From contig DASTTJ010000109.1 of assembly GCA_035760205.1 (NCBI GenBank), positions 1 through 39,495 on the forward strand: DNA of 39,495 nt, given 5' to 3'. Both the position numbers and the translations under genes were made by a program. Below, in pieces: positions 8,413 through 35,346 of this stretch. The notes beneath the pieces were generated by a model. It was given only the letters and a program-made list of their open reading frames with translations, was not told the origin of the DNA and did no database searches. The DNA is from Steroidobacteraceae bacterium (GTDB taxonomy: Bacteria > Pseudomonadota > Gammaproteobacteria > Steroidobacterales > Steroidobacteraceae). The first letter of the stretch is position 1, and each line of letters begins with the position of its first letter.

Positions 8413-9672
8413 CTAGTTAGGAACGCGCCGGATGCGGGCGCCGATCTGCGCCAGCTTTTCTTCGAGCGCTTCGTAGCCGCGATCGATGTGATAGATGCGC
8501 TCGATTTCCGTCCTCCCTTCCGCCACCAGGCCGGCCAGCACCAGGCTGGCCGAGGCACGCAGGTCGGTGGCCATGACTGGCGCCGCGGTCAGTTTGGGGA
8601 CGCCCTTGATGATGGCCGTGTTGCCCTCGAGCCGGATCTCGGCGCCCAGTCGGCGCATTTCCAGCATATGCATGAAGCGATTCTCGAAAATGGTCTCGAC
8701 GATCGTGCCGACGCCATCGGCAATGGTATTGAGCGCGGCGAACTGCGCCTGCATGTCGGTGGGAAACGCCGGATACGGCGCGGTACGCACGTCCACCGAC
8801 TTGGGGCGGCGACCGCGCATGTCCACTTCGATCCAGTTCGGCCCGATGCCTATCTTGGCCCCGGCCTCAGTGAGCTTCGCCGTCACCGCGTCGAGATGTT
8901 CGGGCGCCGTATTCTTGATGCGTACGATGCCCGAGGTGATCGCACCGGCCACCAGGTAGGTGCCGCCTTCGATGCGGTCGGGCAGTACTTCGTAGCTGGT
9001 GCCGTGGAGTTTCTCGACACCCTGGATCGCGATCTTGTCGGTGCCCGCACCGCGGATCTTCGCGCCCATAGAAATGAGGAAGTTGGCGAGGTCCACGACT
9101 TCCGGTTCGCGCGCCGCGTTTTCGATGATGGTCTCCCCATCGGCGAGTGTGGCCGCCATCATGAGGTTCTCGGTGCCCGTGACCGTCACGGTGTCCAGGT
9201 TCAGGCGTGCGCCCTTCAGGCGGCCGGCACGCGCGCGGATGTAGCCACTATCGATCTGGATGTCGGCACCCATGGCCTGCAAGCCCGCGACGTGGATATT
9301 CACCGGCCGCGCGCCAATGGCGCAGCCGCCGGGCAGTGACACGTCGGCCTTGCCGAAGCGCGCCAGCAGCGGACCCAGCACCAGGATCGAGGCGCGCATG
9401 GTCTTCACGAGTTCGTACGGCGCGAAACATTCGCGCGTGGTAGTGCCGTCGATCTCGATCTGCATCTTCTCGTCGATGGTGACCGAGACGCCCATGCGTC
9501 CTAACAACTCGATCATCGTCGTGACGTCCTGCAGGTGTGGCACGTTGCGGATGGTCACCGGGCCGTCGGCCAGCAGAGCGCCCGCGACGATCGGCAGGGT
9601 CGCGTTCTTGGCACCTGAAATACGCACTTCGCCCTCGAGGGCGATGCCACCATTGATCTGCAGCTTGTCCAC
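8413..9672 (-). CDS. murA: UDP-N-acetylglucosamine 1-carboxyvinyltransferase
   Basis: 419 aa. MDKLQINGG...SGAKNA, active-site Cys loop [12 protein letters not shown]. Canonical position next to ibaG. Confidence 0.97.
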
Positions 9673-9685
9673 TGGATATCTCGCG

Positions 9686-9703
9686 GGGGACTGGCCCCAT
9701 TTT
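9686..9703. repeat. REP-like palindrome copy (GGGGACTGGCCCCATTT)
   Basis: GGGG-N5-CCCC core with a T-run, in the ibaG-murA intercistronic spacer. Confidence 0.5.
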
Positions 9704-9739
9704 TAGGTTGGCGCACGCTAGCAAAAAGCCAGCGGAAAA

Positions 9740-9758
9740 AAATGGGGACTGACCCCAT
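9740..9758. repeat. REP-like palindrome copy (AAATGGGGACTGACCCCAT)
   Basis: ATGGGG-ACTGA-CCCCAT. Preceded by GCTAGCAAAAA, as in other copies. Confidence 0.6.
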
Positions 9759-32287: not shown

Positions 32288-32297
32288 CGCGTCAGCC

Positions 32298-33311
32298 TCA
32301 GGAGGCTTTGGACCAGGCGATGGTGGTGTCCAGCATGCGGTTCGAGAAGCCCCACTCGTTGTCGTACCAGGAGCAGACCTTGACCAACGTGCCTTCGCTC
32401 ACGCGCGTCAGCGTGGCGTCGTAGGTGGACGAAGCCGGATCGTGGTTGTAGTCGACCGAGACGAGCTGTTTTTCGGTGTACGCGAGTACGCCCTTCATCG
32501 CGCCGTCGGCTGCTTCCTTCACGACCTTGTTGATCTCTTCAACAGTGGTCGCGCGCTTGGCGACAAACGAGAGGTCGACCAGCGAAACGTTGATGGTCGG
32601 GATGCGGATCGCGAAGCCATCGAGCTTGCCTTTGAGTTCCGGCAATACCAGGCCGACCGCGGCGGCCGCTCCTGTTTTGGCCGGGATCATCGACATCGTG
32701 GCGGAGCGCGCACGGCGAATGTCCTCGTGATAGACGTCGGTCAGACGCTGGTCGTTGGTGTAGGCGTGGATGGTCGTCATCAAACCACTGACGATGCCGA
32801 TCTTGTCGTTCAGAACCTTCGCGAGCGGCGCGAGGCAGTTGGTGGTGCACGACGCGTTGGAGATGACCGTGTGCGTGCTCTTGAGCACGTTGTGGTTCAC
32901 GCCGTAGACAACCGTCGCGTCCACGTCCTTGCCACCCGGGGCCGAAATGATGACCTTCCTCGCGCCGCCGGCCAGGTGCTTGCCCGCATCCGCCTTGGTG
33001 GTGAAGAAGCCGGTGGACTCGAATACGTATTCGGCTCCGACCGAGGCCCAGTCGATCTTGGCGGGGTCGCGCTGCGCGAACACTTTGATCTTGTCACCGT
33101 TGACGACGATGGAGTCGCCTTCCACGCCCACCGTGCCGGGGAATTTTCCGTGCGCGGTGTCGTACTGCGTGAGGTGCGCATTGGTCTGCGCATCGCCAAG
33201 GTCATTGACCGCGACGATCTGGATTTCGTTGGTGCGCTTCGCTTCATAGAGCGCGCGCAGAATGTTGCGGCCGATGCGTCCGTAACCGTTGATACCTACT
33301 TTGATTGCCAT
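32298..33311 (-). CDS. gap: glyceraldehyde-3-phosphate dehydrogenase
   Basis: [15 protein letters not shown] from ATG 33311 (the track's 33320 is a TTG). Catalytic [10 protein letters not shown]. Confidence 0.97.
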
Positions 33312-33345
33312 CTGTCCCAATCCCCTTGCGTTGAAATCGAAAAAA

Positions 33346-35346
33346 TCAGGAAAGCATCTGTTCCAACTGCGCCTTGAGATCGGCAGCAGTCAGACCAAAG
33401 TGCTTGAAAAGATCCGGGCCTTTGCCCGAGGCACCGAAGCTCTCGATGCCCATCACGCGGCCCTGTGAGCCGACATAGCGCCACCAAGACTGCGGCGAGC
33501 CCGCCTCGACGGCGAGACGGCGGGTGCACGAGGCCGGCAGAACGCTTTCGCGATACGGTGCCGGTTGCGCGTCGAAGGCTTCGCAGCACGGCATGGACAC
33601 CAGGCGCACGCGTTTGCCCGCGGCCTGCAGTTCCTTGACGGCTTCGGCCGCGAACCCGACTTCCGAGCCGGTGGCGATCACGATGGCGTCGGGCGGCCCA
33701 TTGCTGTCGATCAGCACATAGCCGCCCTTGCGCAGGGCAACCAACTGCTCTGGCGTGCGCGGCTGCTGGGTGAGGCCCTGGCGCGTGAAGATGAGCGCCG
33801 TCGGACCATTCTTGCGCTCGAGCGCGGACGTCCAGGCGACAGCCGACTCCACCGCATCGCAGGGGCGCCACAGGTGCAGGTTGGGCATCGCGCGCAGGGA
33901 GGCGAGGTGCTCGACCGGCTGGTGCGTCGGACCGTCTTCGCCGAGACCGATGGAATCGTGCGTGTAAACCAGTGTGGTCGGGCAATGCATGATCGCCGCG
34001 ACTCGCACTGCATTACGCGCATAGTCGGAGAACACCAGGAACGTGCCGCCATAAGGGCGGAAGCCGCCGTGCACGGTGAGGCCGTTCATGATGGCCGTCA
34101 TGCCGAATTCGCGCACGCCGTAGTAAACGTAGTTGCCCTTGAAGTTTTCGGTGGTCAGATCCACCGAATCCTTGCGCTTGGTGTTCACCGAGCCGGTGAG
34201 GTCGGCCGAGCCGCCCAGCATCTCCGGCATCTTGGGCCCGAGCACGTTGAGCACGAGCTGCGAGGAGGCACGCGTGGCCTGCGAACCCGTGACAGCCGAG
34301 GCCGCGGCAATGGCCGATTGCACGATCTCCGCCCAATCCGTGGGCAGGTCGCCCTTCATGCGGCGCTCGAACTCCGCGCCTTCCGTCGGGAATTCACGCT
34401 TGTAGCGGCGCCAAACGCGCAGCCATTTTTTCTCGGCGGTGGTGCCCGCCTCGCGATGGTCCCAGGCGGCGCGGATGTCGTCCGGAATTTCGAACGGCGG
34501 CGATTCCCAGCCGAGCGTCTGGCGCGCATTCGCGACTTCATCCGGGCCCAGCGCTTCGCCATGCGCCGACTTGGTGCCCTGCTTGTTAGGAGCCCCCCAA
34601 CCAATCACTGTCTTGCAGCAGATGATGGACGGCTGATCCTTGCGGTTCTTCGCCTTCTTGATGGCGGCAGCGACTGCATCGGCATCGTGGCCGTCGACGT
34701 TCTTCACGACATGCCAGCCATAGGCCTCGAAGCGCTTCGGCGTGTCTTCGGTGAACCAGCCCGCCACCTTGCCGTCGATCGAGATGCCGTTGTCGTCGTA
34801 AAACACGATGAGCTTGCCAAGCTTCAGGTGCCCGGCGAGCGACGCCGCTTCATGCGAAACGCCTTCCATGAGGCAGCCATCGCCGACGAAGCAATAAGTG
34901 TGGTGATCAACGATGGCGGCGCCGTCGCGGTTGTATTGCTCAGCCAATAGTTTTTCAGCGAGCGCCATGCCCACGGCGTTGGCGAAACCCTGACCCAGCG
35001 GGCCGGTCGTTGTTTCGATGCCGATCTCGAGATCGCGCTCCGGATGTCCCGCGGTCACTGCACCGAGCTGACGGAATTTCTTCAGCTGATCGATCGGCAG
35101 CGGATAGCCGGTGAGATGCAGCAGGGAGTACAGCAGCATCGAGCCGTGACCGTTCGACAGCACGAAGCGATCGCGATTCCACCATTTCGGGTTGGCCGGG
35201 TTGTGCTTGAGCACATCGCGCCAAAGCACCTCGGCAATATCGGCCATGCCCATGGGCGCGCCGGGATGTCCGGAATTCGCGGCCTGAACGGCATCCATGG
35301 AGAGCGCACGAATGGCATTGGCCAGGGCGCGGCGGGTGGGGATCAT
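33346..35346 (-). CDS. tkt: transketolase
   Basis: [42 protein letters not shown] from ATG 35346 (alternative 35361). The track start at 35433 is an ATG inside a REP palindrome. Confidence 0.97.

Follow-up and report, generated by a model that had tools for sequence, protein, structure and literature searches.

The closest described systems to the one reported here are the DNA uptake sequences (DUS) of the Neisseriaceae, namely GCCGTCTGAA and its dialects, which are read by the minor pilin ComP, and the uptake signal sequences (USS) of the Pasteurellaceae, AAGTGCGGT or ACAAGCGGT. Other over-represented octamers are read by a DNA-processing machine, such as Chi (GCTGGTGG) and the FtsK-orienting KOPS (GGGNAGGG), and HIP1 (GCGATCGC) of cyanobacteria is a lineage-specific, hyper-abundant octamer that runs against codon preference and whose function is unsettled. 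Both USS and DUS are evenly spaced, equally oriented, biased in reading frame, of point-mutation origin and absent from recently acquired genes, and USS are accompanied by an approximately 2-fold excess of the tripeptides that they encode (Findlay and Redfield, PMC2817400). A 2025 preprint gives the Neisseriaceae and the Pasteurellaceae as the only families with known uptake sequences (bioRxiv 10.1101/2025.10.24.684340). Here we describe an 8-mer, TTGTTAGG, and its sister words in a genus of uncultured Steroidobacteraceae, starting from a stretch of 39,495 nt (hereafter the window) that is one entire contig, DASTTJ010000109.1, of the assembly called G000. As with DUS and USS, these are short non-palindromic words present in hundreds to thousands of copies, about one per 1–2 kb and equally in both orientations, with a spacing more even than random, a strong frame bias and a point-mutation origin. 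They are likewise lineage-specific, differ as dialects among close relatives and are weaker in compositionally foreign genes. A search of the literature for the words themselves or for competence in Steroidobacteraceae returned nothing relevant.

The G000 genome comprises 3.56 Mb in 450 contigs, has a GC content of 63.5% and is 66.5% complete; a self-trained open reading frame (ORF) caller gave 3120 genes covering 88% of it. In the window, TTGTTAGG is found 8 times, against a mean of 0.14 and a maximum of 1 in 100 dinucleotide-preserving shuffles, and the eight positions and strands given in an earlier note on this DNA were all exact on recount. Genome-wide, 328 copies were counted where base composition predicts 46. 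As null we shuffled the synonymous codons inside each gene. Against this null, which yields about 8–10 copies, the genes contain 304, making TTGTTAGG the top outlier among all 8-mers. This corresponds to an observed/expected ratio of about 30 overall, and of about 100 for the Leu-Leu-Gly (LLG) frame alone, and a ratio near 1 is thus excluded. A maximum-order Markov expectation of 327 copies against the 328 observed shows only that the overlapping 7-mers are equally enriched, and was replaced by the synonymous shuffle. Nor is TTG-TTA the generally preferred way of encoding Leu-Leu, a possibility raised in the earlier note: it accounts for only 3.8% of Leu-Leu pairs in G000, TTA and TTG representing 1.2% and 11.8% of the Leu codons. 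Before codons with an initial G its share of Leu-Leu is 8.4%, whereas before other codons it does not exceed 0.5%, and before Gly it is the commonest spelling (252 of 1033, versus about 1.5–2.4 expected). Tabulation of the TTA codons with their context, as had been advised, showed that 32% come after TTG and 35% before GGN.

TTGTTAGG is a word at the DNA level and not a codon effect, because every stop-free frame on both strands and the intergenic DNA are enriched. By the synonymous shuffle in G000, sense TTG-TTA-GGN was observed 252 times (null 2.4), antisense CCT-AAC-AAN 47 times (null 6.7, about 5–7 across shuffles), and the two other stop-free frames 2 and 3 times (null 0.3 and 0.6). The antisense copies make up 51% of all Pro-Asn-(Lys/Asn) tripeptides, though CCT is a rare Pro codon. 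When the four main 8-mers of the family described below were compared with their own reversed words, the excess was 2.5-fold in coding and 2.9-fold in intergenic DNA. The flanks of TTGTTAGG have a three-base periodicity, which shows that a frame lock exists genome-wide; other frames contain stops, as TAG in one strand and TAA in its complement, and Leu and Gly are common residues, which together account for the apparent lock to one frame. The earlier description of the word as frame-locked on the sense strand therefore needs correction. Seven of the eight copies in the window do read TTG-TTA-GGN in sense, but the word is not limited to the sense strand or to a single frame, and its sense-strand specificity was overstated. 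In the same way, TTGTTAGG is over-represented as reported, but the enriched core is (G)TTGTTAG, i.e. GTTGTTAG, and the last G is mostly Gly-codon context. The enrichment climbs with the GC content at third codon positions, from 5.7-fold in the lowest to 14-fold in the highest class of genes. Selection for off-frame stops ("ambush") was considered and rejected, as TTGATAG, with two stops, is not enriched and TTA-A contexts are unused. Orthologous sites agree between over 30 independent assemblies, which rules out an assembly artefact.

The word had been presented as a lone signal, and its sister words were overlooked. In a scan of all 8-mers against the synonymous shuffle, TTGTTAGG (304 observed, 10 in the null) stands beside GTAGATAG (320/18), GTAGTTTG (192/18) and GTAGTTAG (141/12), and the family GTTGTTAG, GTAGATAG, GTAGTTAG and GTAGTTTG follows the pattern G-T-W-G-W-T-W-G, where W is A or T. 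Each sister word is enriched in several registers (three or four) and on both strands; for CTATCTA, observed/null values in three registers were 276/7.5, 122/20.5 and 25/0.7. Within G-T-x-G-x-T-x-G, changing T2, G4, T6 or G8 abolishes the enrichment, and strong enrichment is limited to 4 of the 8 ways of filling the x positions with A or T; TCGTTAGG shows no enrichment in G000. Such sharp position rules, with four fixed bases and limited A/T combinations, point to a specific reader. One-mismatch neighbours of the words are themselves 2- to 9-fold enriched. The top outliers in 400 kb of a separate complete genome are the identical four words. This asymmetric, W-degenerate family differs in kind from HIP1, which is palindromic. 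Words around CTCGAG and GCTCGAGC also exceed the synonymous shuffle in G000, by 2- to 2.8-fold (e.g. TCGAGCGC, 1438 versus 655), and may reflect a separate codon-pair (CTC-GAG) or DNA-level bias.

The relatives available for comparison are metagenome-assembled genomes of uncultured Steroidobacteraceae bacterium, with no named cultured member among 80 related records. Relative to its reversed control, TTGTTAGG is in 1.7- to 9-fold excess in all 35 genomes of the genus that were tested. It is enriched in none of the 39 other Steroidobacteraceae genera, nearly all of which lie below the control (mostly 0.05–0.3-fold, one at about parity), and it is under its control in the 8 other families of the order (8/8). 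Its copy number in neighbouring genera is 0–10 in most and at most 58. Of 30 genus-mates, 26 show enrichment of GTAGATAG; the exceptions are four basal species (72–74% nucleotide identity versus 79–85%), and other genera show none either. G039, G063, G064 and G066 carry GTTGTTAG only, the other genomes of the genus all four words. In 397 kb of G063, one of the basal genomes, only (G)TTGTTAG is enriched (GTTGTTAG, 107 observed versus 4.5), the base after it varies freely, and none of the three sister words exceeds its control. GTTGTTAG is therefore the ancestral word, the GG of TTGTTAGG being largely Gly-codon context, and a derived subclade has loosened recognition at three positions, adding the sister words. 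The balance between words also differs by species, G063 having 821 TTGTTAGG and 23 GTAGATAG, and G005 207 and 546, respectively. Expansion of the newer word seems to go along with decay of the older one.

The orientation of TTGTTAGG is balanced in G000, with 160 forward and 168 reverse copies. No polarity was found when strand was compared with replichore, as the earlier note had recommended: plus-strand copies occur at about 57 per Mb in both parts of the complete chromosome of the genus-mate G022. An association with GC skew is also absent (44–57%, versus about 78% for GGGNAGGG); GC skew at the scale of contigs is, however, a weak proxy for replication, since genes are not oriented along it and KOPS, the control word, is rich in G, and the complete G022 chromosome superseded it. 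In G000 contigs of 10 kb or more, about 78% of the GGGNAGGG copies are found on the strand richer in G, as expected for FtsK-orienting KOPS, but the richness of the word in G makes this test circular in part. Sites are regularly spaced. In 400 contiguous kb of G022, 261 sites were counted, i.e. one per 1.53 kb, with a coefficient of variation of the gaps of 0.80 versus 0.99 ± 0.06. Only 18 gaps were shorter than 300 bp where 46 ± 5 were expected, a deficit never reached in 2000 random placements. G063 gave 13 such gaps versus 26.5 expected, at one site per 1.87 kb. Sites thus repel each other below about 300–400 bp, independently of their relative strand. The density is similar with one word (G063) or four (G022), about 1 per 1.5–1.9 kb in these two contiguous samples.

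Alignments of orthologous loci inform on how sites are gained and kept. The comparison of DNA word and peptide proposed in the earlier note was informative for LptB, where the peptide is invariant: TTGTTAGG is present in 8/8 loci of the genus and in 0/72 others, which belong to other genera or to Vibrio and in which the commonest reading is CTGCTCGG. Overall, 49% of window sites are retained versus 30% of phase-matched control 7-mers. Gains from CTGCTCGG or GCTGCTCGG via intermediates such as GTTGCTGGG are visible in the alignments, and a single site gain needs several simultaneous synonymous changes. Sites thus arise by synonymous changes, and some are held across species thereafter.

In the window, the strand of the TTGTTAGG copies matches gene orientation, and TTG-TTA is used in 7 of the 15 LLG tripeptides. 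ORF frame arithmetic confirmed that the seven in-frame copies lie in unrelated genes, namely murA, lptA, lptB, mgtE, a penicillin-acylase-family gene (twice) and pgk. The murA, lptA and lptB sites are retained in 11/11, 11/13 and 12/13 genus-mates, with a neighbouring third-position base that varies freely. At 9500–9507 (minus strand), the murA site encodes Leu-Leu-Gly in sense and is exact in 11/11 to 12/12 mates of the derived clade, the adjoining third-position base varying among them; the four basal species carry variants that differ by 1–3 bases and all still encode LLG. The lptA copy (12197–12204, plus strand) is in sense in the signal-peptide region and retained in 10/13 to 11/13 genus-mates. 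The lptB copy (12883–12890, plus) is in sense directly before the Walker A motif and retained in 12/13 to 13/14 derived and 3/4 basal mates. Near the 3' end of mgtE, the sense copy at 18327–18334 (plus) is retained in 6 of 8 aligned mates, the others having TTGCTAG or CTGCTCG. Turnover is seen elsewhere. The two sense copies in the penicillin-acylase-family gene, both on the minus strand, are retained in only 3/13 (27247–27254, probably a site that is young or turning over) and 5/13 (27745–27752, otherwise CTGCTGG or GTGCTGG), and the sense copy in pgk (32031–32038, minus) in 4/11, with CTGCTGG or CTGCTCG in the others. The eighth copy (34583–34590, plus) is antisense to the transketolase gene, where it reads CCT-AAC-AAN (Pro-Asn-Lys/Asn), and is retained in 6/12; the transketolase on the minus strand is backed by Pfam, and the overlapping plus-strand ORF has no Pfam family.

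The variant noted earlier at 22506–22513 was located as TCTAACAA on the plus strand, i.e. TTGTTAGA on the minus strand, in the VWA gene. It keeps the core TTGTTAG with the eighth base changed, and genome-wide TTGTTAGA is 7.3-fold above the codon-aware null. Another core copy, TTGTTAG(C) at 30327–30333 (plus), is antisense to the gene at 29135–30622 and retained in 5/13. In total, the four-word family has 21 sites in the window, to which one copy of the weakly enriched TTGTTTG can be added, and three kinds of sister words are present. (G)TAGTTTG lies at 6321–6327 and TAGTTTG at 24109–24115, both on the plus strand. TAGTTAG is found at the 3' end of murA (8414–8420, plus), antisense in the acylase gene (28444–28450, plus, retained in 10/13) and at the 3' end of pgk (31102–31108, minus). 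Three copies of TAGATAG, two of them overlapping, occupy the rpoN stop and the spacer after it (15010–15032, plus), the copy at 15026 being retained in 9/13. A further TAGATAG at 29373–29379 (plus) looks like a recent gain, as it is retained in 1/13 and the others have TAGATCG or TAGATGG. The remaining sister words are GTAGTTTG at 20386–20392 (minus, retained in 3/3) and GTAGATAG at 25974–25980 (plus). Two repeats were also observed in the window. A dispersed repeat at 16300–16980 recurs with 72–87% identity in many G000 contigs and in G011, G007, G009 and G012, and a segment of about 45 bp at about 35404–35460, resembling in appearance a repetitive extragenic palindrome (REP), recurs with 88–96% identity in dozens of contigs across the genomes of the genus.

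Of the three options offered in the earlier note, an uptake-signal-like word that drifts into a tolerated reading frame is the best supported. The words best match DNA uptake sequences, and an uptake-type force is the explanation that we tentatively favour. TTGTTAGG would be the Leu-Leu-Gly face of a genus-specific recognition word acting on double-stranded DNA, and recognition would have relaxed from the ancestral GTTGTTAG to G-T-W-G-W-T-W-G in most species, admitting GTAGATAG, GTAGTTAG and GTAGTTTG. Copies would arise through point mutations, mostly synonymous, in tolerant frames, on either strand and in spacers, and a selection-like force would keep them, saturating at about one per 1.5–2 kb. 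What we infer is uptake as the process and the identity of the reader, a competence machinery that prefers word-bearing fragments. Word alleles could then replace wordless ones via homologous recombination, leading to accumulation, and the word would mark DNA of the own lineage. Words containing TTAG may be suited to this, being the rarest in GC-rich coding DNA and hence the most specific as tags. A search for competence genes, suggested earlier, was successful: ComEC, ComEA, DprA, TfoX and two ComP_DUS-family pilins were found in the genus, the pilins being encoded at C402:1161-1421 and C60:20626-20868 of G000. ComEC and TfoX are missing from one genome outside the genus; as markers of the genus, however, competence genes were discarded, as both are widespread in the family, and so are the ComP_DUS pilins. 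ComEC was not found in 10/40 and TfoX not in 22/40 Steroidobacteraceae genera, and as several of the genomes are 98–100% complete, competence genes seem to have been lost repeatedly in this family.

Several observations weigh against uptake or set the words apart from USS and DUS. Among the 39 word-free genera, ComEC is present in 29, TfoX in 17 and ComP_DUS pilins in 37; as competence genes are this common there, they leave the genus specificity of the words unexplained and represent a necessary condition only. Coding DNA is not poor in the words, as it is in USS and DUS: it holds 92% of the copies and represents 88% of the genome. Inverted-repeat pairs of the terminator type are practically absent, with one TTGTTAG pair within 40 bp genome-wide and none for the three sister words. 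The words use rare codons, and the encoded tripeptide is hardly enriched: LLG occurs in the proteome at 1.13-fold of expectation (LGL 0.99, GLL 0.87), versus about 2-fold for USS. The coexistence of four discrete words in most species is unusual for an uptake signal, and the core has only 7–8 bp, without extended flanks. The host differs as well, being an uncultured soil gammaproteobacterial genus and not a host-associated family, and an uptake function is here a prediction.

It is also possible that the words serve another sequence-specific reader of DNA, for which each kilobase-scale segment must carry a site, such as methylation- or nick-directed repair, a protein that organises the nucleoid or a defence system by which tagged DNA is spared. 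The sharp recognition landscape, the presence on both strands without polarity, the regular spacing at constant density, the retention and the dialect shift fit such a reader equally well, and nothing links the words specifically to competence. The earlier suggestion of a protein or RNA recognition site survives in this form, as a protein site at the DNA level is compatible with the data; a site at the RNA level is out, since antisense copies and spacers are enriched. However, no candidate gene for such a reader was identified, and we know of no system of this kind by which a rare 8-mer is multiplied to hundreds of copies. An initial benefit for a new reader is also hard to see with so few sites to start from (0–10 in most neighbouring genera, at most 58), whereas molecular drive needs none. 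In a version of this idea that we consider rather unlikely, the reader would belong to a system of genome maintenance or self-recognition that is new to science and has no relation to competence, and its specificity would have drifted from GTTGTTAG to GTWGWTWG between species.

Alternatively, a context-specific mutation or mismatch-repair bias, comparable to very-short-patch repair, could make the words from near-cognates, and the words would then be functionless. The enrichment of the one-mismatch neighbours and the similar enrichment of coding DNA and spacers would be consistent with this, and a W-degenerate recognition resembles the target of Vsr, which is CCWGG. We nevertheless judge it improbable. 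Independent conversions would not yield the deficit of close pairs, or an equal density with one and with four words. The words made here are AT-rich in a genome of 63.5% GC, while known repair biases restore G:C pairs, and the several synonymous changes required at each site would have to be simultaneous.

An overlap with integrons deserves mention. A cluster of 22 hits in G022, taken at one point for a ribosomal-protein operon, is a chromosomal integron (G022:C1:413600-436520; L015, L016). Its IntI-type recombinase (Pfam Phage_integrase and SAM_4; TIGR02249, 444 bits) adjoins about 21 cassettes, and the attC sites, of roughly 90 bp, extend from GCCTAAC to ...TTGTTAGGC. The cassette region has a lower GC content, and word density within it was therefore disregarded. 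Roughly every second full-length IntI match from the genus contains one in-frame TGA or TAG, which could reflect decay of the integrase in many species or matches that overrun the true stop. The words could in principle be integrase boxes spread or selected via integron activity. TTGTTAGGC includes the integron core site GTTRRRY, here GTTAGGC with its boundary after the first G, the word forms the end of attC sites in this very genus (the 21 of the G022 integron finish with ...TTTGTTAGGC or ...GTTGTTAGGC), and C after TTGTTAGG is commoner than expected. This origin is nonetheless very improbable, because IntI does not track the word and GTTAGGC is not enriched in G063. IntI scores over the cut-off in 17/39 word-free genera and was not found in the word-rich G066 and G010. 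In G063, neither GTTAGGC (76 versus 66) nor CGTTAGGC is enriched, the enriched unit being GTTGTTAG with the next base free. Moreover, the sister words do not match GTTRRRY, genic copies have no hairpin context, and extra core sites within genes would be expected to be harmful.

A signal polarised with replication, like Chi, KOPS or architecture-imparting sequences, would also be an over-represented 8-mer found once per few kilobases, but Chi and KOPS are strongly co-oriented with replication and the words are not: forward copies are even along the complete chromosome, there is no relation to GC skew, and strand goes with gene orientation in the window. We give this explanation hardly any credit. 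Lastly, a translational effect by which TTA is well decoded only after TTG and before G, proposed in the earlier note as an unusual codon context and in line with the neighbours of TTA tabulated above, can be dismissed, as TTGTTAGG is enriched in antisense, in other frames and in spacers and its sister words in three or four registers.

For annotation, the word family explains the clustering of the rare TTA, CTA, ATA and TCT codons in housekeeping genes of this genus. The dialect shift inside one genus, with one word in basal and four in derived species, would lend itself well to a search for the reader through co-variation. If the uptake-type reading is true, the words would provide a simple marker to assign contigs, plasmids and phages to the genus in metagenomes. 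They would also represent a third, independent case of an uptake-type self-tag, in a soil genus that is abundant and uncultured, beyond the two host-associated families Neisseriaceae and Pasteurellaceae, and sequence-biased DNA exchange, or another form of genome-wide tagging, would be wider than those two families suggest.

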